Source of the DNA: Deltaproteobacteria bacterium
Lineage (GTDB): Bacteria; Desulfobacterota; Desulfuromonadia; Desulfuromonadales; BM103
Direction: 5' to 3'
Assembly: GCA_024279915.1 (NCBI GenBank)
Contig: JAJRRB010000039.1
Location: 652-64,651, forward strand
DNA length: 64,000 nucleotides
Under the pieces are notes generated by a model, which searched no databases, was not told where the DNA came from, and saw nothing but the letters and a program-made list of their open reading frames with translations. The position numbers and the translations under genes were made by a program. Of the stretch, positions 1 through 64,000 are shown in pieces (position 1 is the first letter of the stretch; each line of letters begins with the position of its first letter).

Positions 1-1950
1 ATGAACAGAGAGTTTTCCAAGGGGCGCTTTATGCTCAAGGCCATATCAGCGTTATTTGTCCATCGCAAACCAGCTGTTCTTGCGATTAAGGTGGCACTGA
101 TCTGTCTGGCCTTTCTCTGTGCTTATGCGCTGCGTTTCGATCTGACGATTCCGTCTGTTTACTGGCCGACCATTCTCAAGCTGATTATTCCCCTGTTGGT
201 GATCAAACTGCTGGTGTTTCGCTACATGGGCTTGTCGACCGGCTGGTGGCGCTATGTTTCCATCTCCGATGCGCTGATTATCTTCAAAGCCAACCTGGCC
301 GCTTCGGCTGTCTTTATTCTCTACGTTACTTTTGTCCATCGGCTCGACAATGTGCCACGTTCGATCTTGCTCCTCGACGGCATCCTCTGTTTCCTCTTTG
401 CCTGTGGTATCCGCTTGCTGACCAGGGCTTACCGGGAAGACTATCTCTTCTTCTCGCGGCGAAGTCTCAAGGGCAAGACGCGGGTGATGATAATCGGTGC
501 CGGCAGTGCCGGGCAATCGATCGTGCGGGAAATGCGGCAGAACCCGGATCTGAAAATGATGGCGGTCGGCTATCTTGATGACGACCCATCGAAGCATAAG
601 AAAAGTTTTCAGGGCGTGCCGGTTTTAGGCGGTACCGATAAATTGACGGAATTGTGCAGTGCCACCCGGACAGATGAAGTGATCATCGCCATCCCTTCGG
701 CTTCGAGCAGCGTGATGAAGGAGATCGTGGCCTTGAGCCAGGCTGCAGAGGTCAAGTTCAAAACTTTGCCGGGGGTCGGTTGTCTGATCGATGGCAAGGT
801 CTCAGTACAGCAGATCCGCGATGTTGATATGGAAGACCTGCTTGGTCGTGAGGCGGCGCGCCTCGACATGGAGCAGATTAAAGAATACCTGACCGGCAAA
901 CGGATCCTGGTCACCGGTGCCGGCGGCAGTATTGGCAGTGAGCTCTGCCGTCAGGTGGCACGTTTCAAGCCTGCCCAGCTGATTCTTTTCGAGCATGCCG
1001 AGACGCCTCTCTTTCATATCGAAAACGAGCTGCGGATTGCTTTCCCCAACCTGAGCATTAAACCGGTGATCGGCGATATTCGTGACCGCTCACGCGTCAA
1101 TAATATTTTCAACAGTTGCCAGCCGGAGGTGGTTTTCCATGCGGCCGCTTACAAGCATGTGCCGATGATGGAAGAGAACCCCTGTTCGGCGGCCAACAAT
1201 AACGTGCGCGGTACGCGCGTGGTGGCGGAAGCCGCAGATCATTATGGCACTTCACACTTCGTGATGGTGTCGACTGACAAGGCGGTGAACCCGACCAATA
1301 TCATGGGCACTTCGAAGCGGGTTGCCGAGATTTTTGTGCAGAACCTGGCCCGCCGCAGCCAGACCCACTTTGTGACGGTGCGCTTCGGCAATGTGCTCGG
1401 CAGCAACGGCAGCGTCATCCCGACCTTCCGCGAACAGATCAAGAATGGCGGTCCGGTCACGGTGACCCATCGTGACGTGACGCGTTTCTTCATGTCGATC
1501 CCCGAGGCCGCTCAACTGGTATTGCAGGCCGGCTCAATGGGGCAGGGCGGAGAGATCTTTCTGCTCGACATGGGCGACTCGGTGAAGATTGTCGAACTGG
1601 CAGAAACGATGATCCGGCTTTCCGGTTTCGAGCCTTACGAAGAGATCGATATCGAGTTTACCGGTTTGCGCCCGGGTGAGAAACTCTACGAAGAGCTGCT
1701 CCTTGAAGGTGAAGGAATCAAGCCGACCAACCATGAAATGATCCGGGTTGCTTCTTCGACTGAACGGCCCTGGGAGGAATTGCTGCAGGATCTTGATGGC
1801 CTCTATGACGCTTCGCAGAATTACCGGGTTGATGAGGTGGTTGCCTTGATGCGGAAAATGGTGCCGGAGTATCAGCCGGTGATGAAGTTGGCGGCGGCGA
1901 AGAAGAATCAAGAGCTTTCTTCTCCAGCCAGAGAATCTAAATCTTATTAA
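1..1950 (+). CDS. CapD/PglF/WbpM-family membrane-anchored NDP-sugar 4,6-dehydratase/epimerase (polysaccharide biosynthesis protein)
   Basis: 649-aa ORF. Hydrophobic N-terminal helices are followed by two Rossmann glycine motifs (IIGAGSAG; VTGAGGSIGSEL), plus AAYKHVP and FGNVLGSNGSV motifs typical of this family. The ORF begins at base 1, so the 5' end may lie outside the window. Confidence 0.85.
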   Translation: MNREFSKGRFMLKAISALFVHRKPAVLAIKVALICLAFLCAYALRFDLTIPSVYWPTILKLIIPLLVIKLLVFRYMGLSTGWWRYVSISDALIIFKANLAASAVFILYVTFVHRLDNVPRSILLLDGILCFLFACGIRLLTRAYREDYLFFSRRSLKGKTRVMIIGAGSAGQSIVREMRQNPDLKMMAVGYLDDDPSKHKKSFQGVPVLGGTDKLTELCSATRTDEVIIAIPSASSSVMKEIVALSQAAEVKFKTLPGVGCLIDGKVSVQQIRDVDMEDLLGREAARLDMEQIKEYLTGKRILVTGAGGSIGSELCRQVARFKPAQLILFEHAETPLFHIENELRIAFPNLSIKPVIGDIRDRSRVNNIFNSCQPEVVFHAAAYKHVPMMEENPCSAANNNVRGTRVVAEAADHYGTSHFVMVSTDKAVNPTNIMGTSKRVAEIFVQNLARRSQTHFVTVRFGNVLGSNGSVIPTFREQIKNGGPVTVTHRDVTRFFMSIPEAAQLVLQAGSMGQGGEIFLLDMGDSVKIVELAETMIRLSGFEPYEEIDIEFTGLRPGEKLYEELLLEGEGIKPTNHEMIRVASSTERPWEELLQDLDGLYDASQNYRVDEVVALMRKMVPEYQPVMKLAAAKKNQELSSPARESKSY

Positions 1951-1966
1951 AGCGAAGCTTATATTC

Positions 1967-2093
1967 GCCGCGGATAAGGTCTGATAACATCTGATAAATC
2001 TTAAGACAAAACGCATAAGCTATTGAGTTTTAAGACTTTAACCTTAAGACCTGGCCTTTGACCTATCAGACTTGATCAGATCTTATCGGCGGC
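1967..2093. repeat. 127-nt intergenic element bounded by ~19-nt imperfect inverted termini (GCCGCGGATAAGGTCTGAT ... ATCAGATCTTATCGGCGGC); MITE/REP-like
   Basis: The termini are reverse complements with 2 mismatches. The interior carries three TTAAGAC units and CTGATAA units. Related termini (TTATCNGCGGC / GCCGCAGATAA) recur at 9333-9426 and 10363-10436. Confidence 0.6.
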
Positions 2094-2172
2094 TAAATGA
2101 ATTTTCAGGGCGAAGGGCTGCTTTGGAGGTTAATGGTTTTTGTTTCGCGCAGTCATTTAAGGCCCAGTTTTA

Positions 2173-2427: not shown

Positions 2428-4641
2428 ATGAAACTGCAAAAGATTCTGGCTGTACTGATGATTTTCTCTCTGTCGCTTGGTTCGCTTGGAACCTTCGCGC
2501 CATCGGTGTCGGCCGCTGATGATCTGACGCCTGAACAGAACCTCACGCAATTGAAAGCTGCGGCCGATGCTGCGAAAGCCGCAAAGTTGGCGGCTCTCTC
2601 TGCGGCACAAGAAGCTGCCAGGATTAAAGCTATTGCTGAAGCTGCTCTCGTAACTCAGCAAGCTGTTCAAGTTGCCGCAGAAGCAGCCGCGCAAGTTGCC
2701 GCTGATGCTGCGCAAGCCGCTGCAGACAAGATTGCCCTGGCAACTACGGATGAAGCAAAGGTTGCAGCCATGAAAGAGGCCTTGAACGCGGAGTCGGCTG
2801 CCAAGGATGCCGCCGTTGAGGTTGCCCAGGCAAACCTGGCTGTCGAGTTGGCCAGCACCTCTGTTGCCGAGGCGACTGTTTCAGTTGTTGCGGCACAAAC
2901 CGAAGTCATGAAAGCCACCACGGTTGAAGCCACGGCGACGGCCAAGGAGACCGCAGCGGTTGCTGTGATCACTTCGAGCACCGCTGCAGGTGATGCCGCT
3001 GCTGCCAAGGCTGCTGCAGATGCGGCCGCTGCCGTCAAGGCTGAGGAAATCGCCAAGCTGGCCGCGATCGAAGCGGCCACAATTGCTGCCGATCTTGCCG
3101 TTGCTGAGAAACTCGCTGAGGCGACCCGGCTGGCTGAGATTGCCGCCGCCGCCGAAGCAACGGAAGCCGAAAAAGCTGCCGCTGATAAAGCCCTTGCCGA
3201 GCAATTTGTTGCTGAAGCTGTCGCTGCCAAAGCTGCTGCGGATGAAGCTGCGGCTGCCAAGGCGATAGAAGTGGCAACCATTGCCGCTGCTCAGGCCGCC
3301 GCCGATCAGGCCGCCGCCGCTCAGGCTGCTGCTGAGGCTGAAGTTGCTGCCCAGGCTGCTGCTCAGGCTGCTGCTGACCGGGAAATTGCCCAGATCGCCG
3401 CTGCGGAAATCGCTGCCGCCGAACAGGCCGCAGCTCAAGTTCGTGCCGAAGCTGCTGCCGCCCAGGCCGCTGCTGCTACTCTGGCTGCTGCCCAGGCCCA
3501 GGCCCAGGCCCAGGCCCAGGCTGCCGCCGCTGAGGCTGCCGCGCAAGCTGCTGCGCAAGCTGCCGCCGATGTAACCGCTGCTGAGTTAGCCACCGCCACT
3601 CAGGCTGCTGCTGAGAGGGCTGCAGCCGAAGCTGCTGTCGCCCAGGCCGCGGCCGTTGCCCAGGTCGTTGCTGATGCCGCCGCCGCCCAGGCCGCCGCTG
3701 ATGCCCAGGCCGCCGCTGATGCCGCTGCTGCTCAGGTCGCCGCTGATGCCGCTGCCGCTCAGGTTGCTGCTGAAGCTGCTGCCATCGCTGAAGCCGCCGC
3801 CGCCCAGGCTGCTGCTGCTGCCCTGGCTGCCGAGCAGGCTGCTGCTGCCGAAGCGGCCGCTGCCAAGGCTGTTCTGGTTGCTGAACTGGCTGCGGCCCAA
3901 GCCGCCGCCGCCGAAGCCGCTGCCGCTGCCGATGCTGCTGCTGCCGCTGCTGCTGCCGAGCAGAGTGCCGCTGAGATTGCCGCCGCCGCTGAAGCTGCTG
4001 CTGCTGCTGAAGCTGCTGCACAGCTTGTCGCTGCTGAAGCTGAAGCTCAGGCCGTTGCTGATGCTGCTGCCGCTCAAGCCCTTGCTGATGCCACTGCTTT
4101 AGCCGCTGCCGAACAGGCTGCTGCCGAAGCTGCCGCTGCCCAGGCCGCTGCCGATGCAGCTGCTGCTGAACTGGCTGCTGCCGAAGCTGCTGCTGCCGAG
4201 CAGGCTGCTGCCGATGCTGCTGCTGCCGAGCTGGCTGCGGCTGAAGCTGCTGCTGCTGCCGCTGCTGCCGAGTTGGCTGCTGCTGAAGCCGCTGCTGCCG
4301 CGATGGCTGCTTCCGAACTGGCTGCTGCCGAGCAGGCTGCTGCTGATGCTGCTGCTGCCGAGCTGGCTGCCGCTGAAGCCGCTGCTGCCGAGCTGGCTGC
4401 TGCTGAAACTGCTGCTGCCGAGTTGGCTGCTGCCGAAGCCGCTGCCGCCCAGGCTGAAGCCGACGCTGCTGCCCTGGTTGCTGCCGAAGCCGCTGCTGCC
4501 GAAGCTGATGCTGCTGCCGTGGCTGCTGCTGAAGCCGCTGCTGCTCAGGCTGCTGCAGATGCCGCCGCTGCCGCTGCTGCTCAGGCTGCTGCCGAAGCCG
4601 CTGCTGCTGAAGATGACGATCCCGCCAGCCCCAGCTCATAA
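2428..4641 (+). CDS. Secreted, extremely alanine-rich acidic low-complexity protein (737 aa), function unknown
   Basis: RBS GGAAGGGA lies upstream of the ATG. The signal peptide is MKLQKILAVLMIFSLSLGSLGTFAPSVSA/AD. The remainder is almost only A, E, Q, D, V, L (K and T only in the first third), with pentad-like units [E/D/Q]-x-A-A-A and 10/20-aa repeats (AAELAAAEAAAAEQAAADAA). It ends EDDDPASPSS and is followed by a 9-bp hairpin. All other frames are open only because of the GCN repetition. Confidence 0.8.
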   Translation: MKLQKILAVLMIFSLSLGSLGTFAPSVSAADDLTPEQNLTQLKAAADAAKAAKLAALSAAQEAARIKAIAEAALVTQQAVQVAAEAAAQVAADAAQAAADKIALATTDEAKVAAMKEALNAESAAKDAAVEVAQANLAVELASTSVAEATVSVVAAQTEVMKATTVEATATAKETAAVAVITSSTAAGDAAAAKAAADAAAAVKAEEIAKLAAIEAATIAADLAVAEKLAEATRLAEIAAAAEATEAEKAAADKALAEQFVAEAVAAKAAADEAAAAKAIEVATIAAAQAAADQAAAAQAAAEAEVAAQAAAQAAADREIAQIAAAEIAAAEQAAAQVRAEAAAAQAAAATLAAAQAQAQAQAQAAAAEAAAQAAAQAAADVTAAELATATQAAAERAAAEAAVAQAAAVAQVVADAAAAQAAADAQAAADAAAAQVAADAAAAQVAAEAAAIAEAAAAQAAAAALAAEQAAAAEAAAAKAVLVAELAAAQAAAAEAAAAADAAAAAAAAEQSAAEIAAAAEAAAAAEAAAQLVAAEAEAQAVADAAAAQALADATALAAAEQAAAEAAAAQAAADAAAAELAAAEAAAAEQAAADAAAAELAAAEAAAAAAAAELAAAEAAAAAMAASELAAAEQAAADAAAAELAAAEAAAAELAAAETAAAELAAAEAAAAQAEADAAALVAAEAAAAEADAAAVAAAEAAAAQAAADAAAAAAAQAAAEAAAAEDDDPASPSS
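3490..3519 (+). repeat. Perfect hexanucleotide microsatellite (GCCCAG)x5 inside the Ala-rich CDS, encoding (AQ)5
   Basis: Direct reading of gcccag repeated five times; the repeat is in-frame. Confidence 0.9.
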
Positions 4642-4739: not shown

Positions 4740-6011
4740 ATGTTTGTACTGACGAGAAGTCTGGCCCTTGCCAGCATTGTCCTTTTCTTTGCTGTTTCTC
4801 TCTGCAGCGCAGCTGATGAATCCGGTCAGCTGTTCGGTTTCGGTCAGGGGTATTTTCACCCCTCAGTGAAGGTCGCAACGGAATACAGTGATAACTACAA
4901 GGCTGTTGCCAGAGGCGAGCAGAGTAACTGGACAACCACGGTCAGCCCGGGGTTCTGGGTTTCTTTGCCTGCGTCTCACAAGAAGGCCTTCAAGATCGAG
5001 TCTTCCAACTCTGCACCGGGCGGCTATGGCATCTCGCGTTTTCGTGACCCGGAGGATAAAGGCTTCTATAGTTCGCTGATGTACAATGCCGATATTGTGC
5101 GTGGCCACGAACACACAGATGATGACCTGACCAAGCACCGTGGCCAGGGCATGCTGCAGTATGCTTTTGCCAGAGGCCTGGCTCTTGAGGTCTCTGACGT
5201 CTACATCAAGAGTGCTGATGAGAACGCTGATACTGTTGGTGTTGATCTGGAAAAGTACAACTCGAACCTAGCCACCCTGATCGCTTTTTACGATGTGAGC
5301 CCCAAGCTCAAGCTGCGGGTTGGCTATGCCAATTTCAACCTCGACTACACCTCGGGCACCGACGTTGATTACAAAGAGCGCGTTGATAATCGGGTCTCTG
5401 CTTATGTGCTCTACCGGGTTCTGCCGAAAACCGAACTGTTTGTTCAGTACGATTATATCGATATCGATTACGATCAGGATATTCTGGCCGATGGTGAGGA
5501 CCAGCATTATTTTGTGGGTGTCAAGTTCGATACCACTGCACGGATCAGCGGCCATGCGAAAATCGGTTACGGTGAATATGTTGCCGATATTAACAACAAT
5601 GATACTTTTGAAGACTTCATCGGCGACGCCTCTTTGAAGTATGCTTTCTGGGGAAATTCGAGCCTGACCCTCACGGCCCAGCAGATTGTTAACGTGACGG
5701 ATGATAATGCGACTCCAAGAAGTTACCAGAACATCCTCCACAGCGAGGTTGGTCTGGCGCTGTCGCATAAGTTTACGAAAAAAATTGGTGCTAAAGTCGG
5801 TGTCGCCTATAAAGAGGACGAGTATCGTTTTGACAGCAGTGACTCAGGTCGTGAAGATGAGGACTGGGTGACTAGGTTCAATCTCGATTACACCATGAAT
5901 AACTGGCTCAAACTGGGTACCAGTTACAGCTATACGGACCGGGATTCCAATGAAAATAATAATGATTATAAGGAAAACCAGCTGACGTTTACTGCTTCGG
6001 CATCGTTTTAA
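4740..6011 (+). CDS. Outer-membrane beta-barrel protein of EPS loci (signal peptide, alternating beta-strand pattern, C-terminal Phe)
   Basis: RBS AGGAGG. Signal peptide MFVLTRSLALASIVLFFAVSLCSA/AD. Many amphipathic Y/F/D-rich strand motifs, and a terminal ...LTFTASASF typical of BAM substrates. Its position directly upstream of the Wza-like gene fits an EPS-locus role. Confidence 0.7.
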   Translation: MFVLTRSLALASIVLFFAVSLCSAADESGQLFGFGQGYFHPSVKVATEYSDNYKAVARGEQSNWTTTVSPGFWVSLPASHKKAFKIESSNSAPGGYGISRFRDPEDKGFYSSLMYNADIVRGHEHTDDDLTKHRGQGMLQYAFARGLALEVSDVYIKSADENADTVGVDLEKYNSNLATLIAFYDVSPKLKLRVGYANFNLDYTSGTDVDYKERVDNRVSAYVLYRVLPKTELFVQYDYIDIDYDQDILADGEDQHYFVGVKFDTTARISGHAKIGYGEYVADINNNDTFEDFIGDASLKYAFWGNSSLTLTAQQIVNVTDDNATPRSYQNILHSEVGLALSHKFTKKIGAKVGVAYKEDEYRFDSSDSGREDEDWVTRFNLDYTMNNWLKLGTSYSYTDRDSNENNNDYKENQLTFTASASF

Positions 6012-6020
6012 AGTAACCAC

Positions 6021-6101
6021 AGGGACTGTCCCCGGGGTTAAGGGGGCTGTCCCATACCTGTAAATGAAAATCTGGGACAGGCACCTTCGGAGCCAGTCCC
6101 T
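6021..6101. repeat. Nested GGGAC-type dyads between the OMP and Wza genes
   Basis: AGGGACTG (6021-28) pairs with CAGTCCCT (6094-6101). CTGTCCCA (6047-54) pairs with TGGGACAG (6073-80). GGGACTGTCCC (6022-32) is itself a dyad. Confidence 0.6.
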
Positions 6102-6120
6102 AATGAGAGTTGTAAGTAAT

Positions 6121-6921
6121 ATGAAAACCGTTGTTCTGATGCTGCTCTGCTGTCTTTCTGTTGTTCTCCCATCCTGGGCCGATACCGCCCAGGATGATTA
6201 TTTGATCGGTGCGGATGCCGTTCTGAAAATTACAGTTTACGATCATACGGATCTGGATGTTGTCTCCCGCGTCAGCGGTGACGGGAGCGTCCAGTTTCCG
6301 CTTCTGGGCTCTGTAAACCTTGGTGGCTTAACCCTTAAAGAGGCGATCGAGGAGATCCAGAAGCAGCTGATGGATGGCTACCTGGTGAATCCGCAGGTGT
6401 CGATCTTTGTCGAAGAGTATCGCAGCAAGAAGGTGATGGTGATCGGTCATGTCGCTGAGCCCGGTGTTCTGGAGTTGAGCGGACCGACCCATCTTCTCGA
6501 AGTGCTGACCATGGTCGGTGGCTTACGTGAAAATGCCGGAGATGTGGCGACGATTAAACGAACCTTGTCCGGCGCTAAACAAGGCCAGAAGATTTTAAGG
6601 ATTGACCTTAAGCGTTTGCTGGAGACCGGTGATGAAAAACTGAATATCCAGATCATGGATAAAGACAGCGTGTTTATCGCCAAGGCCGGCATGGTTTACG
6701 TGACCGGCGAAGTCGGCAAACCGGATGCCTACAAGTACGAAGAAGGCACCACGGTCCTCAAGGCCATCAGCATGGCGGGCGGCTTCACCCAGATCGCCGC
6801 AAAAAACAAGATCCGTATTGTCCGCATCGTCGATGGCAAGGAACAGATCATGGAGAAGGTGTCTCTGCAGGAAGAGGTGAAATCGGGCGATGTGGTTGTT
6901 GTGCCGGAGAGTTATTTTTAA
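6121..6921 (+). CDS. Periplasmic polysaccharide export protein (Wza/ExoF/EpsA-like, Poly_export + SLBB domains)
   Basis: Signal peptide MKTVVLMLLCCLSVVLPSWA. The motifs YLIGADAVLKITVY...GDGSVQFPLLGSVNLGGLTLKEA and the C-terminal ...SGDVVVVPESYF are typical of this family. The ORF is open from 6064, but that extension lies in the repeat region. Confidence 0.85.
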   Translation: MKTVVLMLLCCLSVVLPSWADTAQDDYLIGADAVLKITVYDHTDLDVVSRVSGDGSVQFPLLGSVNLGGLTLKEAIEEIQKQLMDGYLVNPQVSIFVEEYRSKKVMVIGHVAEPGVLELSGPTHLLEVLTMVGGLRENAGDVATIKRTLSGAKQGQKILRIDLKRLLETGDEKLNIQIMDKDSVFIAKAGMVYVTGEVGKPDAYKYEEGTTVLKAISMAGGFTQIAAKNKIRIVRIVDGKEQIMEKVSLQEEVKSGDVVVVPESYF

Positions 6922-7024
6922 GCGACGAAACGGTCGCCATCTCAGCCATGATCGGTGGGCTGATAAAATCGAAAAAGAACTACATAAATAACAGTAGTAA
7001 GAAATAAGATCATGCTTTTCGCGC

Positions 7025-7048
7025 CCCTCGTCCCGCGTCCCGCGTTCC
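7025..7048. repeat. Heptamer array (CCCCTCG TCCCGCG TCCCGCG TTCCGTT), GGGACGY family in reverse orientation
   Basis: Direct reading; two perfect adjacent TCCCGCG units. Confidence 0.7.
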
Positions 7049-7103
7049 GTTGCATTTAAATATTTCCTCCTTTGCAACTAAACTGAAAACTGGATTGAAA
7101 CAT

Positions 7104-9200
7104 ATGAATCAAGAAGAATCCCAGCTACGAACCGAAGAAGTCCATTTACGCGATTACCTGCACGTGATCAACAAGCGTCGCAGTCTGGTGCTGGCTGTCT
7201 TTGCGGTAATCTTCGTGATGGTGGCTCTCTATACCTTTGCCAGTGTGCCGCTCTATCGTGGTACGACCAAGGTTTTGATTGAGAAGGCGTCTTCTTCGGC
7301 GCTGACAGGGAATTCGCCTTCGCGGATTTATGATCCGGAATTTTATGAGACCCAGTTCCAGTTGATCAAAAGCCGCGCGGTGGCCAAACGGGTGGTGGCA
7401 AGCCACGACCTGGTCGACAATTTCGCCAGTTATCGCGGCGGCAATGACGATGAGGGGCTGTTGTCGAATGTGGCCGGCTGGTTTTCGGCTGCGAAAGAGC
7501 TGATCAAAGGCCTGCTTGGCACGACACAACCGGTGGGTGAAGAGCTGGCGTCGGATCAACTGACAAAGACCGCGGACCTTCTCAACGCGGATATCGAGGT
7601 CAAACCGTTCAAGAACAGCCGCATCGTTACGATCAGCTACCTGGCGCCCACCCCCGAGTTCTCCGCCATGATCGCCAATGCCACCGCCAAGGCGTATATC
7701 CAGGAAACGATGGAGATGAAGCTCGACTCCACCCGGACCACCCTGGAGTGGATGACCAGAAAGGCAACCGAAGAGGGTGTGAAACTGCAAGCGACTGAAC
7801 AGGCGCTGCAGAACTACATGGTGGCCAACGACATCATCACCCTGCAAAACCGCATGTCGGTGACCCCGGAACAGCTTTCCCAGATCAGCACGCAGCTGGT
7901 GATCGCCGAGTCGAAGCGCAAACAGCTTGAGTCTCTCTACACCAAAGTGCGCAGCGTGGCGAATGACCACAAGAAGGCGGAGACGATCCCGGCGATTGTC
8001 GCCGATCCGGCGCTGCAAATGATCCGTGGCCAGATTCTTCAGGCGGAACAGGATCTGCGCGAGCTGTCCAGTACCTACCTGTCCAAACACCCGGGGATGA
8101 AGAAGGCCAAGGCCGATCTCGAAATCCTCTCTGAAAAACGCAATCAGGAGATCACGAGGATTATCGAATCGATTCACAATGAATACGAGTTTGCCATATC
8201 GGATGAAGAGAATCTGCATGCGCAGATGGAACGGACCAAGGCCCAGGCCCAGGGTTTGAGCGAACGTTTCATTCAGTATGGTGCCTTAAAGCGCGAGGTT
8301 GATACCAACCGCACCATGTATGACGCGCTGCTGATGAAGATCAAGGAGCAGAGCATTACCGAGGAGACGCACCCGGTTTCGCTGTGGATCGTCGAAGAAG
8401 CTATTGTTCCTGAAGCCCCGGTCAAGCCGAACAAGAAGAAGAACCTGCTGCTCGGACTGATTGTCGGTTTGATGGCGGGGATCGGCATGGCCTTTTTCGT
8501 CGAATACCTCGACAACACGATCAAGTACCCGGAAGAGACGGAGAAAGCTCTCGGCCTGCCAGTGTTAGGTCTGGTTTCGCTGTGGAAGGAAAAAGATACG
8601 TCGATTGAGCAGGCGGTTGAGAAGTCGCCGCGCAGTGCCGTTGCGGAAAGCTACAAAGCTCTGCGGACCTCGCTGATGCTCGCCTCGGCAGATGGTGCTC
8701 CCGGCAGAATCCTGGTGACCAGCGCCGCGGCCGCGGCAGGTAAGACGACAACCGCCTTAAACCTTGCTTTCGCCCTGGCCCAGGCGGGCAAAAGGGTGCT
8801 TCTGATCGATGCTGATATGCGCAAGCCGCGCATCCACAAAGCCTTGAAGATGACCAACACTAACGGCTTGTCCAACTACCTCTCCGGCGGCAAAAGCAGC
8901 ATCCTGAAAAAAAGTACGCACGAGAATCTCGATGTGATCACCTCGGGGCCGATTCCGCCGAACCCTTCGGAACTGCTCTCTTCTCGCCATATGCAGCAGC
9001 TGCTCGATAGCCTCAGCGCGAACTATGACGTGATCATCTGCGATTCGCCGCCCCTGCTTTCGGTGGCTGATGCGCGGATCATCACCCGGGTTTGCGACGG
9101 CACGATTCTGGTGGTGCGCGCCAAGCAGACGACTTTCGATCTGGCCCGCAAAGCGACCCGACAGCTCACCTCGATAATGCACCGATCCTCGGGATGGTGA
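7104..9200 (+). CDS. Wzc/GumC-like polysaccharide co-polymerase fused to BY-kinase (tyrosine autokinase); reading frame breaks near 9168-9172
   Basis: ATG at 7104. An N-terminal TM segment is followed by a long coiled-coil Wzz-type periplasmic region and a second TM segment. Next come Walker A (SAAAAAGKTTTALNLA), A' (VLLIDADMRKP) and B (DVIICDSPPLL). This frame ends abnormally (..RQLTSIMHRSSGW*). Confidence 0.85.
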   Translation: MNQEESQLRTEEVHLRDYLHVINKRRSLVLAVFAVIFVMVALYTFASVPLYRGTTKVLIEKASSSALTGNSPSRIYDPEFYETQFQLIKSRAVAKRVVASHDLVDNFASYRGGNDDEGLLSNVAGWFSAAKELIKGLLGTTQPVGEELASDQLTKTADLLNADIEVKPFKNSRIVTISYLAPTPEFSAMIANATAKAYIQETMEMKLDSTRTTLEWMTRKATEEGVKLQATEQALQNYMVANDIITLQNRMSVTPEQLSQISTQLVIAESKRKQLESLYTKVRSVANDHKKAETIPAIVADPALQMIRGQILQAEQDLRELSSTYLSKHPGMKKAKADLEILSEKRNQEITRIIESIHNEYEFAISDEENLHAQMERTKAQAQGLSERFIQYGALKREVDTNRTMYDALLMKIKEQSITEETHPVSLWIVEEAIVPEAPVKPNKKKNLLLGLIVGLMAGIGMAFFVEYLDNTIKYPEETEKALGLPVLGLVSLWKEKDTSIEQAVEKSPRSAVAESYKALRTSLMLASADGAPGRILVTSAAAAAGKTTTALNLAFALAQAGKRVLLIDADMRKPRIHKALKMTNTNGLSNYLSGGKSSILKKSTHENLDVITSGPIPPNPSELLSSRHMQQLLDSLSANYDVIICDSPPLLSVADARIITRVCDGTILVVRAKQTTFDLARKATRQLTSIMHRSSGW

Positions 9201-9295
9201 TCAACGCCCTGGATATGAAGAAGAGCGATCATTACTACCAGTATTATTACGGTTCGTACGGAACTTATGGGGAACAGCCTGAAGAAGAAAGCTGA
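9170..9295 (+). other. Out-of-frame C-terminal tail of the BY-kinase (LDNAPILGMVINALDMKK...YYQYYYGSYGTYGEQPEEES), containing the Tyr cluster
   Basis: The frame displaced by one base encodes the conserved xxGxVxN strand and a 7-Tyr C-terminal cluster, the expected autophosphorylation sites. Confidence 0.75.
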
Positions 9296-9474
9296 AAACT
9301 GAAAACTGGAAAAAACCAAAGACTAATTTATCGGCCGCAGATAAAATCTGATAAATTCGGATCATTGCAAAAGCAAAGGCTTTATAGCTTGTAGACATCA
9401 GATGTTATCCGATTGCATCTGCGGCTAAAATTGTTTTTGCTGCTGCCTTTAACTTACTGCTTACAGCTGGGTTT
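9292..9474. repeat. Composite intergenic repeat: CTGAAAA x2-3 heptamers, a TTATCNGCGGC-type inverted pair, then CTTAC(A/T)G heptamers
   Basis: CTGAAAA CTGAAAA CTGGAAA at 9292-9312 (contains the stop of the kinase tail). GGCCGCAGATAAAATCTGAT at 9333-52 is opposed by ATCAGATGTTATCC..TCTGCGGCT at 9397-9426. AACTTAC TGCTTAC AGCTGGG lies just before the phosphatase ATG. Confidence 0.65.
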
Positions 9475-10173
9475 ATGATCGATCTCCACTGCCATATCCT
9501 CTGGGACATCGATGACGGACCAAGTGATTTCGACGGTTCGATGGCGATGGCGCGTCTGGCTGCTGCGGATGGAACTCGCCAGCTGGTCGCGACACCCCAT
9601 GTGCAAGACATGCTGCACTCGCCTGAACTGATCGCTGAGAAGGTTGCACGGCTCAACCAGGCGTTGCGCGATGCCGAAATCGACCTGGAGATCCTTTCTG
9701 GTGGCGACAACCTCTACAACCTGGGTGTTGAGAATCTGGCCCGCTACTCGATTAACGGCACTCGCTACGTGCTGGTGGAATTCCCCCACACCCATCTGCC
9801 GGCCCAGGCTGGCGACACTCTCTTCGCTGCCTTAAATCACGGTCTGGTGCCGATTATCACCCATCCGGAACGCAACCCCTCTATCGTACAGAACCCGAAG
9901 CTGCTCTTCGAACTGGTTGAAAATGGCGCACTGGTGCAACTGACCGCCGATAGCCTGACCGGTGGTTTCGGTCCTGCCGCCAAGGCGTGTGCGCGTTACC
10001 TGTTAAAGAAAAAGATGGTCCATTTTCTCGCCTCGGACGGCCACTCCTCCAAACACCGCCCACCGACCATGTCCGCCGGATTTAAGGCTGCGTCGAAGAT
10101 TGTTGGTAAGGATGCTGCGCGTATGCTGGTGTTTGATAATCCGGCGAAAGTCGTACAGGGGATTGAGCTGTAA
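9475..10173 (+). CDS. PHP-family protein-tyrosine phosphatase (CpsB/CapC/YwqE type)
   Basis: MIDLHCHILWDIDDGP..., ATPH, VLVEFPH, ITHPERN, ASDGHS. This is the metal-binding His/Asp pattern of CpsB-type phosphatases, and the gene is adjacent to the BY-kinase. Confidence 0.9.
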   Translation: MIDLHCHILWDIDDGPSDFDGSMAMARLAAADGTRQLVATPHVQDMLHSPELIAEKVARLNQALRDAEIDLEILSGGDNLYNLGVENLARYSINGTRYVLVEFPHTHLPAQAGDTLFAALNHGLVPIITHPERNPSIVQNPKLLFELVENGALVQLTADSLTGGFGPAAKACARYLLKKKMVHFLASDGHSSKHRPPTMSAGFKAASKIVGKDAARMLVFDNPAKVVQGIEL

Positions 10174-10440
10174 GCTATAAGCTGCAAATCAAAAGCATCC
10201 TCACGCCCGTTCGTTCACTCACTCAGAGTACGCAGAGACTGCAGAGAGGGTATAAAGCTTTATGGTTTTAACCCAAAGAATTAGGTTTTAAGATTTTGAC
10301 TTCTCTGCTGTCTCTGCGTCTCTGCGAGAGTATGCTTTTGATTTGAGTTTATCAGATGTTATCAGATTTTATCCGCGGCTAAATGATTTGTAGTTTTTGA
10401 CCTTTAATACATGAGTTTTACTGGCCGCAGATAATATTTT
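10171..10440. repeat. Composite intergenic repeat including a ~161-nt imperfect palindrome (10185-10345) and a TTATCCGCGGC/GCCGCAGATAA pair
   Basis: TAAGCTA TAAGCTG heptamers contain the stop codon. CAAATCAAAAGCAT (10185-98) is perfectly complementary to ATGCTTTTGATTTG (10332-45). The arms are built from GCAGAGA / TCTCTGC heptamers. TTATCCGCGGC is at 10367-77 and GGCCGCAGATAA at ~10422-33. Confidence 0.7.
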
Positions 10441-10507
10441 TCAGTTGTTTTTACTCCACAAACCCTGCACTATTCTCTCTGGATAACTCACGATTTCAAG
10501 CCCTTAA

Positions 10508-10542
10508 CTTACAGTCTTAAAGCTCTACAGCTTACAGCTTGA
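10508..10542. repeat. Heptamer array CTTACAG TCTTAAA GCTCTAC AGCTTAC AGCTTGA
   Basis: Direct reading. It abuts and overlaps the possible TTG start (10539) of the next ORF. Confidence 0.65.
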
Positions 10543-10547
10543 ATCCT

Positions 10548-12092
10548 ATGCCCTTTTATCTCCTAATATTTACGCTGATTTTTGCCCCACTCGCCTATGG
10601 TACCACCCGGCCGCTCGCCATGACGATCGTGCAGGCAGTGATCCTTTTCGCGTTACTGTGGGTTTGCGTCGACGCGGCCTTAAAGCGGCGCAAGTTCTAT
10701 CGTCCTCCCGGCCTCTTGCCGCTCGGCCTGCTGGGTGGCCTGATGCTGTTGCAGATGATTCCCCTGCCTGCCGGGCTGTTGCAGGTCATCTCGCCGGTGA
10801 CCTGGCAACGCTATATGGACACGGTCTGGCTGCTGCAGCCGGACCTGTGGATGCCGTTGTCGTTCACCCTGCAGCGCACCGTGACAGCTTTTTGCTATTT
10901 CTTTGTCTGTGTGGCCTTTTATATACTCGCCACCCAGTGCCTGGCCGACAGCGCGCGACTGCGCAAGAGTGTGCGGATTGTTACCGTTTTTGCCGGACTC
11001 TACGCCCTGGTCTCGATCCTCGAGGCGTTGCTGCCGAATGGTCGCATCCTCTGGCTGCTGCAACCGTGGCCTGAGTATGCTGGAGAGTCCTTTGGCAGTT
11101 ATATCAACGGCAACCACTTCGCCGGCCTGATGGGTATGCTGTTGCCGCTCGTGGTGATCCTCTTCCTGGTGGACAAACCGCTGGCGCAGTACGGCGGCTG
11201 GAAGGATCGTCTGGTTGATTTCTGCAGCGACCCGCGCCTGGGCGCACATCTGCTGACCGGCTTTGCAGCACTGCTGGTGGCGGCTTCGATCTTTTTATCG
11301 CTCTCACGTGGCGGTATTTTGAGCACCCTCGGCGCCATGCTGGTGCTCTGCCTGTTGCTGGCCTGGCGTAGGCATTACCGCCGGCAGGCCTTGATCCTGA
11401 TTGGTTTCATCGTCATCCTGTTCTTCTTTATCGGTATCTTCGGCTGGACGAATATCTTTGACGCCTTTGCCAGAATCCGTAATCTACAGGGAGATATTGC
11501 CGATGCACGCCTGGTTTTCTGGCGCGACATCCTGACGCTGGTAAAGGATTTCCCTCTTTTCGGGACAGGCTTCGGCAGTTTTGTCGATAGCTACGGTGGT
11601 TACCAGACCATTTTCATGGGTGAGCGTATAGCGGTTTTTCATGCCCATAATGATTACCTGGAGTTGGCTGCTGAGGGCGGCTTAACGGGCCTGCTGCTGG
11701 CTGTCTGGGCCGCTTGGTGCGTACTCCGGCAAAGCTGGAAGGCTTTCGGTCGCCGACGCAAGCCATTTGCTATTACGCTTTACCTCGGTTGCCTGGCCGG
11801 GATCAGCGCGTTACTGTTGCATAGCCTGACCGACTTCAATCTGCATATCGGCGCCAACGGCCTCTATTTTACTTTCCTCGTTGCTCTGCTCGTTGCTGCC
11901 GCTTCCACCAGTTCACGCAGCGGCTCGCACTCGGAGCTGCCAAAAGTATCTCGTGGTCGGGTCAGTTTGGCTTTGCCTCTGATCGTGATCGGGCTGTGCG
12001 GTTCTTTACTCTTTAATGTTGGTGGTCTCGTCGCCGAGGCCACTTTAGTCCCAGTGGTGGGGGCCAACCTTGCCCAGATAGAAAGCCCGTAG
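10548..12092 (+). CDS. O-antigen ligase/polymerase family membrane protein (Wzy_C domain)
   Basis: More than 10 predicted TM helices. The motif HAHNDYLELAAEGGLTGLLL is typical of Wzy_C/O-antigen ligase proteins. ATG at 10548 (the ORF is open from TTG 10539). It ends at TAG 12090-92, in the same frame as the following TPR ORF. Confidence 0.8.
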   Translation: MPFYLLIFTLIFAPLAYGTTRPLAMTIVQAVILFALLWVCVDAALKRRKFYRPPGLLPLGLLGGLMLLQMIPLPAGLLQVISPVTWQRYMDTVWLLQPDLWMPLSFTLQRTVTAFCYFFVCVAFYILATQCLADSARLRKSVRIVTVFAGLYALVSILEALLPNGRILWLLQPWPEYAGESFGSYINGNHFAGLMGMLLPLVVILFLVDKPLAQYGGWKDRLVDFCSDPRLGAHLLTGFAALLVAASIFLSLSRGGILSTLGAMLVLCLLLAWRRHYRRQALILIGFIVILFFFIGIFGWTNIFDAFARIRNLQGDIADARLVFWRDILTLVKDFPLFGTGFGSFVDSYGGYQTIFMGERIAVFHAHNDYLELAAEGGLTGLLLAVWAAWCVLRQSWKAFGRRRKPFAITLYLGCLAGISALLLHSLTDFNLHIGANGLYFTFLVALLVAAASTSSRSGSHSELPKVSRGRVSLALPLIVIGLCGSLLFNVGGLVAEATLVPVVGANLAQIESP

Positions 12093-12098
12093 CGGGAC

Positions 12099-12893
12099 GT
12101 GGTGCTGCAAAGCGCCCGGCAAGCAGCTGTTTGGGCGCCGCTGGATAGCTCAAATCGCTATCTCGAGGCGAAAGTTCTGCAGGCAATGGGACAGGGTGAA
12201 GAGGCCTTTCTGGTCTTTGGTCGTGTTCTGCAATTGCGGCCGATCAATGCACTCTACCTGCAGCGTGCCGCAGGAGCTGCGCAAGATTTGGATAGAAGGG
12301 CACTTGCCGGTTCATTGTTCAAGTCCGGAACTGTTCTCGATCGGGCCGATCCGCGACGGAGCAAGCCTTACGCGCGTTGGCTGATTCGTCAGCAGCAGGA
12401 GGAGCAAGCCTTTGTCGAGATCAAACGGGCCCTGGAACTGGATCCGCGCCAGACCAGAAGCTTTGTTGACCTGATGCTTCTCAACGGTGTGCCATCAATT
12501 ATGATGGCGCAGGCGCTTCCGGAGAGCGCTTATGCCTGGTTGGCTTACGCACATTACCTGGTTGAGGTGAAACGCTTTAGTGCCGCGGAACGCGCTTTTC
12601 GCAAAGCCATGCTGTTGATGCCGAAGGAGGAAAGACCCACTTATCGAGCTCATTGGGCTTATTACAAGTTCCTCGCAAAGCGTGAACGGTTTGAAGAGGC
12701 GGTTGCGGTGATCCAGAAGGGCATTGAGTTGTTTCCCGATCATGTCGGGTTGCACAGCACGGCCGGCCGACTTTATGAACGGCAGCAGATCAATTATCGT
12801 GCTATTGAAGAGTATCGTCAGGCGCTGCTGCTTAATCCGAAGTTGGAGTGGGTGAGGAAGAGGTTGGAGCGGTTGGAGGGAGGACGGTTGTAA
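12099..12893 (+). CDS. TPR-repeat protein
   Basis: 264 aa with repeated A-x3-[FY]-x2-A-[LI]-x-L-x-P patterns (e.g. EEAFLVFGRVLQLRPIN; EQAFVEIKRALELDPRQ; RAIEEYRQALLLNPKL). GTG start, in frame with the upstream ORF across a single TAG. Confidence 0.7.
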   Translation: MVLQSARQAAVWAPLDSSNRYLEAKVLQAMGQGEEAFLVFGRVLQLRPINALYLQRAAGAAQDLDRRALAGSLFKSGTVLDRADPRRSKPYARWLIRQQQEEQAFVEIKRALELDPRQTRSFVDLMLLNGVPSIMMAQALPESAYAWLAYAHYLVEVKRFSAAERAFRKAMLLMPKEERPTYRAHWAYYKFLAKRERFEEAVAVIQKGIELFPDHVGLHSTAGRLYERQQINYRAIEEYRQALLLNPKLEWVRKRLERLEGGRL

Positions 12894-12913
12894 GCTTTAA
12901 GCTGTAGGGTGAA
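12842..12913. repeat. GTTGGAG-type then TAAGCTN-type heptamer arrays spanning the 3' end and stop of the TPR gene
   Basis: GTTGGAG at 12842, 12863 and 12872, then AGCTTTA AGCTGTA GGGTGAA after the stop. The array encodes the tail ..KLEWVRKRLERLEGGRL. Confidence 0.55.
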
Positions 12914-13049
12914 AATGCCAGAAATAGAGTCAAAAACCATAAATAACCCGTGTCCAAAAGTGCGCAACATGCTATAAAAAAATTAATTATAAGGTGCTGG
13001 TTTGCTGTTTTTTCTTACAGCTTACTGTGATCTGCCAAGGAGAGATTTT

Positions 13050-14174: not shown

Positions 14175-14186
14175 CCCCTGGTGCGG

Positions 14187-15356: not shown

Positions 15357-15357
15357 T

Positions 15358-54064: not shown

Positions 54065-54475
54065 ATGAGTTTTCAGCGCAAACAAAGTGATGATGAGCCG
54101 AGAATCGACATGACGCCAATGGTCGATGTGGTTTTCCTGTTGTTGATTTTCTTTATGATCTCTACGACTTTTGTCGAAAGCCCTGGTATCTCTATCAAAC
54201 TTCCCGAAGCATCATCACAGACGGTTGATCGCGAACCGAAAGAAATCAAAATCTATCTTTCCAGTGCAGGTGATATCTTTTACCATGACAAGAAAATCTC
54301 CATTGATGGGTTCAGAGAATTGCTTTTCGAACATCAGTCTGCCGCTGACAAAACGACGATCCTGCTGTTAGCAGATCAGGAGTCACGACACGGTAAGGTT
54401 GTGACTTTGATGGATCTTGCTCGCGACGCAGGTTTTGTCAAACTGGCCATTGCGACAGAACAGCGCAAAAAATGA
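54065..54475 (+). CDS. exbD: ExbD/TolR-family biopolymer transport protein
   Basis: The N-terminal IDMTPMVDVVFLLLIFFM is followed by a periplasmic domain. The stop/start is adjacent to exbB. Confidence 0.85.
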   Translation: MSFQRKQSDDEPRIDMTPMVDVVFLLLIFFMISTTFVESPGISIKLPEASSQTVDREPKEIKIYLSSAGDIFYHDKKISIDGFRELLFEHQSAADKTTILLLADQESRHGKVVTLMDLARDAGFVKLAIATEQRKK

Positions 54476-54507
54476 AAAGTAAAAAGTTAAAGGTGAAAGG
54501 TTAATGA
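54473..54507. repeat. Heptamer array TGAAAAG TAAAAAG TTAAAGG TGAAAGG TTAATGA bridging the exbD stop and the pfkA start
   Basis: Direct reading. The first unit contains the TGA stop and the last contains the ATG. Confidence 0.7.
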
Positions 54508-62063: not shown

Positions 62064-62068
62064 ACTCT

Positions 62069-63823
62069 ATGAACCGTGTTGCGATTTACATATTGACTCT
62101 TGTTTGCCTGTTTTTACCGGTGACGACTTTTGCTGAGAGCGTTGAAACGGCTTACCAGAAGGCAAGAGATGCTTACTATTCGCTACAAAATTCATCACGC
62201 AAGCAAATGTATCGTGATCAGTGGCAAAGTGTTTACAAGCAATTTGAGTCAGTACACGAGCGCTTTCCAAAGACTAAGCGCGGTGCTGATGCTCTGTATA
62301 TGTGTGGCAAGACGACAGCTGGCCTCTATACCATCAGTCGCATCAAAACTGATGCACAACGTGCGGTTGAACTTTTCGAACAAATGGCTGAGAGATATCC
62401 GGACAGCTCTCTTGCTGATGACGCTCTGCTGCGGGCCGGTAAGCTTCAGGAAGAAGCGCTTGGTAATAAAACCGGTGCCTACATTATTTATCATCGCCTG
62501 GTAAAAACCTTTCCTTTCGGTGATATGACAAAAAAAGCCAAGGCTCGTTTGACGGCGCTTGCCACGTATGCACCGCCCAAAAAACCTCTGGTTAAAGTCG
62601 CTGAGAAAAGAGTTGATCAAACCTTTGTGAAGTCAGCAGTTGGTTCGGCCGCTTCGGCTGGAGGTGGCCGCCTGACCGCGGTTCGCTACTGGTCCAACCC
62701 CGGTTACACGCGGATCGTTCTGGATGTCTCCCGCGACACACAGTTTTCTACCCATTATCTTGTGCCTGACCCCAAAGAGGGTAATCATCCACGGCTCTAT
62801 GTCGATATTGAAAAGACCCGCTTATCTGATGGTTTGAAAGAGCCTACGGTTGTTGATGATGGTCTGCTACGTCAGATCCGTACCGGTTCTCCACAGGAAG
62901 ATACGGTGCGTGTTGTTCTGGACTTGGACAGCATGAGTGATTACAAGGTCTTCCCGTTAAGCGATCCGTGGCGCATTGTGATTGATGTCGCAGGAGATAA
63001 GGCTCCCGAACTGAAACGTCGAGAGACAGAAATCAGTGCATTGCCTGATTCGGCGAACGATGCCATCGCCAAGGTCCTTAAAGAAGCGCCGAAAGATCAA
63101 CAACCTTTGCATATTCCCAATATGCCTGCGGCAAACACCCTGCGTCGAATCGTCGTCGATGCTGGACATGGCGGCAAAGACCCCGGTGCGGTCGGGCCGA
63201 GCGGTGTCTACGAGAAAACTGTCACACTCAAGATGGCCAAAGCGCTCGCAAAGGAGTTGAGGCGACAGATCGGCTGCGAGGTTATTCTGACCCGTAGTGG
63301 TGACGTTTATCTCCCCCTCGAAGAGCGTACAGCTATTGCCAACAAAGTGGGTGCCGACCTGTTTATCTCACTGCATGCTAATGCCAATAAGAGTCGCAAG
63401 CCATACGGCATAGAGACGTACTATCTCAACTTCTCAAAAAATGATAAGGCTGCTGCTGTTGCTGCGCGTGAGAACGGCACGTCACTCAAGCAAGTGTCAG
63501 ACCTTGAGCTAATTCTGTTTGATCTGATGGCAAATGCCAAGATCAATGAATCAAGCCGTTTGGCGACAGAAATTCAGGAGAGCCTGGTGAAACGAGTCAG
63601 TAAGAAATATAGCAAGGTACGGGATCTTGGTGTCCGTCAGGGTCCGTTCTATGTCCTGCTTGGCGCCACAATGCCCTCTGTTCTGGTGGAAACGGCTTTT
63701 CTCAGTAATCCCCGTGAAGAAAAGCGACTGAACAGCAGCGCCTACCAGAAAACTGCTGCTGAAGCGATTGCCCATGCAGTCAAAAATTATGCAGTCAACA
63801 ACAAGCTGATAGCGGTCCGTTAA
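62069..63823 (+). CDS. N-acetylmuramoyl-L-alanine amidase (Amidase_3) with N-terminal TPR/YbgF-like and AMIN domains
   Basis: A signal peptide, then an AMIN-like region (LTAVRYWSNPGYTRIVLDV...RVVLDL), then the catalytic domain (IVVDAGHGGKDPGA...FISLHANA...VLVETAFLSNP). Confidence 0.88.
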   Translation: MNRVAIYILTLVCLFLPVTTFAESVETAYQKARDAYYSLQNSSRKQMYRDQWQSVYKQFESVHERFPKTKRGADALYMCGKTTAGLYTISRIKTDAQRAVELFEQMAERYPDSSLADDALLRAGKLQEEALGNKTGAYIIYHRLVKTFPFGDMTKKAKARLTALATYAPPKKPLVKVAEKRVDQTFVKSAVGSAASAGGGRLTAVRYWSNPGYTRIVLDVSRDTQFSTHYLVPDPKEGNHPRLYVDIEKTRLSDGLKEPTVVDDGLLRQIRTGSPQEDTVRVVLDLDSMSDYKVFPLSDPWRIVIDVAGDKAPELKRRETEISALPDSANDAIAKVLKEAPKDQQPLHIPNMPAANTLRRIVVDAGHGGKDPGAVGPSGVYEKTVTLKMAKALAKELRRQIGCEVILTRSGDVYLPLEERTAIANKVGADLFISLHANANKSRKPYGIETYYLNFSKNDKAAAVAARENGTSLKQVSDLELILFDLMANAKINESSRLATEIQESLVKRVSKKYSKVRDLGVRQGPFYVLLGATMPSVLVETAFLSNPREEKRLNSSAYQKTAAEAIAHAVKNYAVNNKLIAVR

Positions 63824-63824
63824 T

Positions 63825-64000
63825 ATGTCAAACCAATCAACCCATCCCGATTTTTTTGCGACAGAACTGATGATGGCCGGGGATGTCTCTTTTGAAGAGA
63901 GACGTTCCTTTATCCTTGAAGCGGCACGCGGTTATCTGGAGTTTTATCGCAACCTCTGTCACGAAATGCACGATGCCGGCGGCAGCGGTCGTGAGGTCGT
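63825..64000 (+). CDS. glnD: 5' end of a probable [protein-PII] uridylyltransferase (GlnD); truncated by the window edge
   Basis: MSNQSTHPDFFATELMMAGDVSFEERRSFILEAARGYLEFYRNLCHEMHDAGGSGREVV resembles GlnD N-termini (..h..G.SG.EV..). Only 58 codons are visible. Confidence 0.35.
   Translation, partial: MSNQSTHPDFFATELMMAGDVSFEERRSFILEAARGYLEFYRNLCHEMHDAGGSGREV

Follow-up and report, generated by a model that had tools for sequence, protein, structure and literature searches.

Tandem heptanucleotide arrays clustered in an exopolysaccharide locus of a Desulfuromonadales bacterium

We analysed short tandem arrays of 7-nt units in a 64,000-nt stretch of a Deltaproteobacteria bacterium assigned to the Desulfuromonadales (contig JAJRRB010000039.1, positions 652 to 64,651, forward strand), the whole of which is called the window below. 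The first 27 kb of the window hold, on the plus strand, an exopolysaccharide (EPS) and sugar-nucleotide cluster. Its genes encode a Polysacc_synt_2 protein, an Ala-rich secreted protein, a beta-barrel porin, Wza, Wzc, CpsB, Wzy, a tetratricopeptide repeat (TPR) protein, Gmd, Fcl, ManC, a phosphomannomutase (pmm), an epimerase and Der, followed by a chemotaxis-like cluster. The remainder of the window is occupied by housekeeping genes, among them leuS, holA, murJ, glnA, thrC, pfk and mutS.

Period-7 arrays in the exopolysaccharide cluster

Tandem arrays were sought with Tandem Repeats Finder (TRF) and with a separate match/mismatch scorer; for the latter the gene of the Ala-rich repeat protein was masked, and the scorer accepted arrays at a score of ≥10, compared periods 4-15 and used 30 dinucleotide shuffles as the control. 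TRF reported about 15 period-7 arrays from 7020 to 22813 and one more at 54468. The scorer found 10 period-7 arrays against a shuffle mean of 0.07 and a maximum of 1 (n = 30), about 150-fold above chance, and 0-3 arrays for each of the other periods. An earlier note on this DNA, made from its letters alone, had proposed arrays like the short tandemly repeated repetitive (STRR) elements of cyanobacteria, many in inverted pairs; the tandem-repeat run and the shuffles confirm the period-7 signal, and the inverted pairs and their hairpins are real. The arrays consist of head-to-tail 7-nt copies in excess of chance, as do STRR sequences and the heptanucleotide class of long simple-sequence repeats. 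They are degenerate and 2-5 units long, and most tracts have at most two identical neighbouring units.

The earlier note counted at least 17 heptamer sites, but several of those it listed do not stand. There is only one GGGACGT unit at 12093, the site at 12842 is irregular, and the arms at 10220-10330 have a period of 8-9 rather than 7. The sites at 9445 and 20992 consist of 2-3 degenerate units, and two-unit mismatched pairs are at chance level unless their family recurs.

The arrays form one local cluster in this window. All robust arrays lie between 7.0 and 22.8 kb, and the other 41 kb hold a single weak one, so that the description of the family as genome-wide-looking is not borne out. Array density was 62 per 100 kb at 6.9-23 kb versus 0 at 23-64 kb. 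As a background we used 715 kb of manC loci of other bacteria from a metagenome scan with ManC, in which the matches listed were mostly 50-60% relatives and serve as a control, not as orthologues; these loci have about 1 array per 100 kb, making the window cluster about 60-fold denser. Outside the cluster, spacers of 200-750 nt are numerous yet empty of arrays, and the other 41 kb of the window contain no long inverted repeats.

Three unit families recur beyond what shuffles predict: GGGACGN at 6 sites within 12 kb (0.23 expected), AATTCAA at 5 sites (1.1 expected) and TAAGCTG at 3 sites (0.4 expected). The recurrence of families across sites, as previously claimed, therefore holds for these three; it does not hold for CCAGCCT, GGGAGCW, AAACTGA and TGAAAGG, none of which recurs above chance as a family in the window. 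The three recurrent families sit within 16 kb, and the other 41 kb are without any of them.

Placement relative to genes is far from uniform (Table 1). In eight spacers an array begins between -10 and +12 nt from the upstream stop codon, with a joint chance of about 1e-8 under uniform placement, and in three of the eight the unit itself supplies the stop: the wzc TGA lies in CTGAAAA, and the TAA codons of cpsB and the TPR gene lie in TAAGCTN. Six arrays finish 2-11 nt ahead of a start codon. The earlier note was thus right that arrays overlap or abut stop and start codons, and its phrase "occupying gene boundaries" describes the intergenic arrays well, but it did not remark that a third of the arrays are in-frame parts of genes. 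Five lie in frame inside coding sequence: in Gmd (residues 293-302), Fcl (198-209), ManC (170-187, two adjacent arrays) and the epimerase (11-21). Units that carry a stop in all frames (TAAGCTG, CTGAAAA and the reverse of AATTCAA) are confined to gene ends and intergenic positions, and the intragenic arrays are in the stop-free orientation. The Fcl array inserts 10 residues relative to the sequence of the E. coli GDP-fucose synthetase structure; sequence comparison places the Gmd array within a poorly conserved stretch.

The arrays also bear on annotation: they supply stop codons, extend open reading frames (ORFs) upstream through hairpins and create low-complexity inserts in conserved enzymes. 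The longest fcl ORF begins at GTG 14181 and runs through the 14224-14306 hairpin, where relatives and E. coli Fcl put the start near GTG 14343; stop-free arrays can lengthen ORFs artificially in this way (fcl 14181-14342).

Table 1. Coordinates of the arrays and hairpins in the window (z, stability as RNA against shuffles)
Feature	Position	Strand	Context
GGGACGN array, ~4 units, solitary	7020-7049	-	wza-wzc spacer; found by TRF and family scan; unstructured RNA, z -0.6
Two AAACTGA units, weak, at chance level as a family	7080-7095	+	ends 8 nt before wzc start
CTGAAAA array, 3.7 units	9287-9312	+	holds natural wzc stop; GGGACTG array at the same place in L121
Hairpin element with GCCGCAGATAA...TCTGA terminal inverted repeats, not period 7	9334-9425	.	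between the two wzc-cpsB spacer arrays; z -5.3
CTTACNG units, ~3, degenerate	9447-9468	+	end 6 nt before cpsB start
TAAGCTN array	10164-10184	+	holds cpsB stop; outer 5' arm of nested palindrome in cpsB-wzy spacer
Inner hairpin, arms of 8-9-nt GCAGAGA-type units	10185-10345	.	cpsB-wzy spacer; z -5.1
CAGCTTA-type array	10508-10541	+	ends 6 nt before wzy start; outer 3' arm, pairs with 10164-10184
TAAGCTT TAAGCTG TAGG array	12891-12911	+	holds TPR gene stop codon
AATTCAA-family array in gmd, in frame	13924-13950	+	codons 293-302, QFKIENSKL
GGGACGT GGTACGA GGGACAT array	14187-14209	+	begins 12 nt past gmd stop
Hairpin, 40-nt arms of 9-nt GGGATGAAG units	14224-14306	.	gmd-fcl spacer; z -9.1
AATTCAA-family array in fcl, in frame	14936-14968	+	codons 198-209
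Hairpin, GGGACGN arms, 4 units each	15351-15449	.	fcl stop to T6 run just before manC ribosome-binding site; z -5.0
GGGACGY x4 then CCAGCCT x2.6 in manC, in frame	15962-16015	+	codons 170-187, hypervariable loop
Hairpin, AATTTTG / AATTCAA arms, AT-rich	16948-17073	.	manC-pmm spacer, 8 nt past stop to 3 nt before start; z -2.8
GGGACGN array, 4.7 units, in epimerase, in frame	18549-18581	-	codons 11-21, ahead of Rossmann motif
GCTGGAG-type array	20901-20925	+	begins 1 nt past der stop
GGGAGCW x3 then AGCTAATC x2.6	22792-22830	+	fills 61-nt spacer ahead of cheY
TGAAAGG-type array, degenerate, 4.4 units	54468-54501	+	ends 2 nt before pfk start; sole array outside cluster

Hairpins and turnover among relatives

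The suggestion that inverted pairs of arrays form long hairpins is upheld by folding: paired arrays fold far below shuffles, with RNA z-scores from -2.8 to -9.4 (computed for the spacer hairpins over 15351-15455, 14220-14310, 10200-10345 and 16945-17076). The lowest value belongs to the entire cpsB-wzy spacer (388 nt), a nested quasi-palindrome in which TAAGCTN at the cpsB stop pairs with CAGCTTA before wzy. An alternative pairing of arrays across cpsB (9445 with 10171) was dropped, the fold supporting the pairing within the spacer (10164 with 10508). At the fcl-manC and manC-pmm junctions the base of the hairpin adjoins both the upstream stop and the downstream start. Hairpins built from inverted arrays in operon spacers are also a trait of STRR sequences. 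Solitary arrays, in the regions of 7015, 20895 and 22785, are unstructured as RNA, and the intragenic ManC arrays of the window form no hairpin (z +1.0); those in ManC of the relative L124 do.

The fcl-manC hairpin is followed by a T run of six in the window, seven in L207 and five in L122; a consensus terminator scan omits it, its loop being too long. Sigma-70 promoter and terminator scans of the window gave counts equal to those in shuffles, and Rfam gave no match at the gathering score anywhere in the window. We considered whether the 14224-14306 hairpin could be an integron attC site and rejected this, since GTGAAAT, at its right end, departs from the GTTRRRY core and its flanks are syntenic housekeeping genes in relatives. 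No integrase was seen among the window ORFs scanned, and neither a transposase, integrase or reverse transcriptase nor a RAYT (Y1 transposase) domain was found among the 40 larger window ORFs, a few shorter ORFs lying outside the scan.

Syntenic loci were fetched via ManC homologues (L121-L125 and L206-L208). The nearest homologues, 77-88% identical, belong to metagenome-assembled genomes that carry the label Desulfuromonadales or 'Deltaproteobacteria'. L121, whose ManC is 89% identical to that of the window by pairwise alignment, is almost array-free; L124/L125, L206 and L207 are rich in arrays. The same permissive places hold different families. The Gmd loop carries AATTCAA in the window, L124 and L206, GGGACGN in L207 and no array in L121-L123, and the Fcl loop carries AATTCAA in the window and L206, GGGACGC in L207 and GAGGCGT plus ACCCCTC in L124. 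In the ManC loop a recognisable period-7 array is present in six of eight aligned sequences, with a different leading family in each, and L121 and L122 have degenerate remnants only. At the epimerase N-terminal site the GGGACGN family is found also in L124 and L125 and is absent in L123. The intragenic arrays are in frame in every relative compared.

Turnover of the arrays between relatives is fast at these fixed places. ManC proteins that are 97-98.7% identical outside the loop have loops that are unrelated or differ by indels of 6-8 residues, so array turnover must far outpace point divergence. In the window each arm of the fcl-manC hairpin holds 4 units, compared with 3 in L207, 2 in L122 and about 1 in L124; L121 and L123 lack the hairpin. 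Wherever it is present it remains significant, though the unit number changes in both arms. The manC-pmm spacer of L124 and L125 holds a hairpin of a different unit family. L124 and L125 (96% identical) were the only close pair compared, and their arrays differ by base substitutions, with no 7-nt indel. A candidate unit-number polymorphism between the two was set aside: a 1-nt indel immediately downstream of the array breaks the frame of the L124 epimerase, and this assembly is rich in homopolymer errors.

Some arrays appear to have moved together with their flanks. The module [GNNACGN]n + GRANNTCAARR was found at 6 sites, distributed over the window, L122 and L206, and at none in 1.55 Mb of other loci; the fcl coding sequence of L207 contains a looser copy. 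The hairpin of 9-nt units occupies the gmd-fcl spacer of both the window and L124; in L207 it lies downstream of manC. Within single genomes, one family occupies several nearby sites: L124 has ACCCCTC in its fcl loop and again in its manC loop, and in L206 CGCGCCA lies ahead of three genes. These modules and relocated hairpin elements suggest that arrays are copied with their flanks between sites, and the comparative pattern does not fit conserved sequence signals. The locus and its relatives form a compact comparative series, in which the same spacers and loops are empty, hold 1-4 units or hold other families, and in which array turnover, the symmetry between arms and the tolerance of in-frame inserts can be measured.

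Arrays also occur beyond this locus. L055, a Desulfuromonadales locus with the order focA-pheA-tyrA-aroA, has a GGGACGN array, an AATTCAA-family array and a GGGTAGC hairpin, and in L206 arrays are found around sulfate-assimilation genes as well; since these are unrelated operons, the families are not restricted to EPS genes within the order. When one genome per species was scanned for three GGGACGN units, at least 120 stretches were returned, which indicates a wide taxonomic spread, not per-genome counts; among the matches listed were Gemmatimonadota, Actinomycetota, Bacteroidota, Planctomycetota, Armatimonadota, Acidobacteriota and others. In 8-kb windows around the listed arrays there are 32 period-7 arrays per 100 kb (about 17 without the seeds) in about 100 unit families, and 0.7-4.7 arrays per 100 kb of other periods.

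Among these loci (L001-L120; for example L004, L011, L027, L031, L040 and L052), GGGACGN lies beside arrays of CCTTGAA, CAACTAC, CAACCGT, CTTCGTG or GGGGTCA and sometimes adjoins inverted partners. In L052, a higher-order repeat of 90 nt includes arrays of this sort.

Known repeats and competing explanations

STRR-like arrays were described in cyanobacteria in 1990. REP/BIME and REPIN elements of enterobacteria and pseudomonads are intergenic hairpin repeats within operons, with inverted pairs and dispersed family copies, that stabilise upstream mRNA, and Rickettsia palindromic elements (RPE) are selfish in-frame inserts at surface positions of housekeeping proteins. The window arrays resemble REP/BIME and REPIN in being intergenic and hairpin-forming and in occurring as inverted pairs within operons. 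They are unlike them in structure, since REP arms are not tandem arrays, and REP sequences are mobilised by the RAYT transposase. RPE are palindromes of 100-150 nt, whereas the in-frame inserts of the window are heptamer arrays.

A close precedent is in the same class of bacteria, contrary to the earlier statement that no equivalent was known in this lineage. Aklujkar et al. 2009 (PMC2700814) described tandem heptanucleotide elements of Geobacter metallireducens, with four GGGACCG units (Gmet_H4xx), at 49 intergenic and intragenic sites, and inverted pairs of 3-5 tandem units of 7-9 nt between cistrons (class 1-3 sites), one of them between proB and proA. Their Table S4 lists several copies per operon (flg, cob and sucB linkers); the function proposed was binding of a regulator or a regulatory RNA, and no comparison across relatives was made. 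The window arrays share with these elements the runs of 3-5 units of 7-9 nt, a GGGAC core in one family, pairs on opposite strands with varying distance between them, and positions both between cistrons and inside genes with several per operon. They differ in that the window has no GGGACCG or MTYCTGA array, and in that one 16-kb cluster is visible here where the G. metallireducens elements are chromosome-wide.

Cyanobacterial STRR sequences, of which each genome has several families, are also alike in their tandem 7-bp units and their hairpins in operon spacers. STRR hairpins of 7-bp units between hupS and hupL are thought to stabilise transcripts or couple translation (PMC2670836), and Vioque 1997, by its title, places STRR sequences inside a structured gene, that for RNase P RNA, in a part that tolerates them. 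Unlike those of cyanobacteria, the present arrays are in another phylum, include no tandem pair of STRR1-3 (CCCCAGT, TTGGTCA, CAACAGT; ≤1 mismatch) in the window and prominently occupy enzyme loops in frame. Relatedly, L121 has three GGGACTG units directly after the wzc stop (3368-3389), the unit being a rotation of the STRR1 complement, and CAGTTAA/CAGTAAA at 15334-15352, whose complement ACTGTTN resembles STRR3.

MacGregor 2015 (PMC4679880) reported runs of 2-6 TAACTGA copies in Beggiatoaceae, cyanobacteria and Bacteroidetes, mostly a few nucleotides upstream of starts, some over stops, since the unit has a stop in all frames, and a few at the periphery of ORFs, with origin and spread described as unknown; the same paper, in its summary of Mrazek 2007, gives heptanucleotides as the commonest class of long simple-sequence repeats in most prokaryote genomes. 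The window arrays similarly lie near starts, over stops and inside ORFs, but TAACTGA is a single dominant unit with rare inverted pairs (one indirect repeat) and the window has several families and many inverted pairs. Window AAACTGA is one base away from TAACTGA but is not significant as a family, and the window has no TAACTGA array. Together, these comparisons identify the arrays as a known kind of repeat in a new organism rather than a new kind of element: a dense, real cluster in a lineage that already has a published description of the same phenomenon.

The explanation to which we give somewhat better than an even chance is that the arrays are STRR-like repetitive DNA, generated by slippage and local copying and retained only at sites where it does no damage; it may also serve as RNA hairpins between cistrons. 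Unit number would change by slippage, and arrays would be copied from site to site within a chromosome neighbourhood by template switching or gene conversion; such local copying would leave each genome with a handful of preferred unit families that recur at many nearby sites. Selection would then retain arrays only in harmless places: between a stop codon and the next ribosome-binding site, at gene ends where the unit supplies the stop, and in frame in permissive surface loops or enzyme N-terminal tails. The arrays would hug stops and starts because of this filter and because compact operon junctions leave no other room, and the filter would also explain why stop-bearing units cap genes and intragenic arrays are stop-free. 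At inverted arrays the polycistronic RNA or single-stranded DNA would fold, the base of the fold joining the upstream stop to the downstream start. By analogy with REP and STRR intercistronic hairpins, such hairpins probably act as a barrier to 3' exonucleases, as a partial terminator or in translation coupling, and their geometry makes a stabilising, terminating or coupling role plausible. The maintenance of hairpin symmetry while unit number varies may reflect selection for structure or correction of the palindrome by intrastrand template switching.

Several observations weigh against this explanation. No copying event was caught in the act, and we know of no enzyme for array copying. Part of the pattern could also be produced by in-situ slippage together with selection for a small number of sequences. 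The putative RNA-level role is read from hairpin geometry; the solitary arrays at 7020, 20901 and 22792 have no fold, so that a hairpin role cannot cover all arrays, and a U-tract (T6) is present at one hairpin only (15351-15449). Confinement of the arrays to 16 kb of 64 kb is not accounted for by spacer availability. Finally, the window and L124, whose ManC proteins are 78% identical, have arrays of the same family in the Gmd loop and the epimerase tail, so that some arrays must be long-lived, which is also compatible with a function.

Among the alternatives, independent slippage at each site, with no dispersal, would derive period 7 from the replisome and shared families from coincidence or composition. 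The prevalence of heptanucleotides among long simple-sequence repeats, for which a slippage origin has been put forward (Mrazek 2007, as summarised in PMC4679880), and the excess of period 7 over other periods around the listed GGGACGN arrays are both in its favour. It is nevertheless unlikely in view of the GGGACGN excess within 12 kb, of the recurrence of an array plus its non-repetitive flank as a module and of whole hairpin elements in different spacers across genomes, and of the poor quality of degenerate 2-5-unit arrays as slippage substrates. The arrays might also be contingency loci, in which gain or loss of 7 nt shifts the frame or the 5' untranslated region spacing and so phase-varies surface polysaccharide genes. 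The EPS locus and the epimerase array, which is in the 5' coding region where a one-unit change would shift the frame, invite this idea, as do the wzc frameshift and the in-frame wzy-TPR stop, but both of these lesions lie outside arrays. We regard phase variation as the least probable of the explanations considered: the tracts are short and imperfect, the frame is intact at intragenic arrays of every relative, L124 and L125 show a 1-nt frame break downstream of an array and no 7-nt indel, and L055 carries the same families in housekeeping operons.

The arrays might instead be sites for DNA-bending or global regulators (IHF/HU-like or others), with inverted pairs binding a protein on each arm and looping the DNA to regulate the EPS operon. 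Regulator binding was the proposal made for the very similar paired arrays of G. metallireducens, and the repeated GGGACGN unit suits it, three units amounting to 21 bp or two helical turns. Orthologous places hold unrelated families, however, unit number and spacing vary, the close relatives L121 (almost array-free) and L123 do without arrays, arrays also occupy enzyme loops and occur in both orientations, and about 100 other unit families accompany the listed GGGACGN arrays in other phyla; we therefore consider regulator sites rather unlikely, slightly more so than slippage alone. Start-adjacent arrays could also be bound on the mRNA by a post-transcriptional regulator such as ribosomal protein S1, CsrA or cold-shock proteins, as MacGregor 2015 proposes for TAACTGA in Beggiatoaceae. 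This would suit the six arrays that end just before starts. However, as many arrays lie at stops or inside genes, both orientations are found on the transcript, and families differ between relatives at the same start. GGGACGN contains GGA, the CsrA core motif, which counts in favour of such a regulator, but the GGA motifs are base-paired in the hairpins, and overall we judge this explanation improbable.

A more speculative possibility, which we rate about as unlikely as slippage alone, is that GGGAC-core arrays and their companion 7-nt arrays are written and copied by a process dedicated to them, whether an enzyme system or a particular pathway of the replisome or of repair, that would be shared by many phyla, act in chromosome patches, build palindromic spacers and rewrite permissive loops. 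If so, the gmd-fcl-manC operon of the Desulfuromonadales would offer a natural before-and-after series.

Other features of the window

Relative to L121, wzc, which encodes a BY-kinase, has a 1-nt deletion near 9176, outside the arrays. The called ORF therefore ends at 9200 and leaves the Tyr-rich C-terminal tail (to 9295) in another frame, which may indicate a pseudogene or a sequencing error. An in-frame TAG (12090-12098) splits wzy from the TPR ORF; L121 has one 782-residue protein here, which in tblastn aligns through the stop in one frame.

The window also contains a second, MITE-like repeat family, whose elements end in the inverted repeats GCCGCAGAT(N)AAATCTGA and have units of roughly 10 nt inside (TCTGATAA). 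Its members are at 1962-2098, 9334-9425 and 10345-10440, with 5 ends found versus 0.5 expected. In L206 the family is present in the spacers at 5700-6160, 7190-7480 and 9000-9180, as larger elements nested in heptamer-array hairpins.

The Ala-rich secreted protein (2428-4641, 737 residues) has a signal peptide followed by near-pure Ala/Glu/Gln repeats and gave no Pfam match; its gene explains all TRF rows of period 9-45 between 2.6 and 4.6 kb. Upstream of glnA, an AT-rich stretch of 1.8 kb (43630-45445, G+C 0.43) has no ORF of ≥150 residues; within it are an inverted repeat (44226/44421) and, at 43703-43745, a strong hairpin resembling a terminator.

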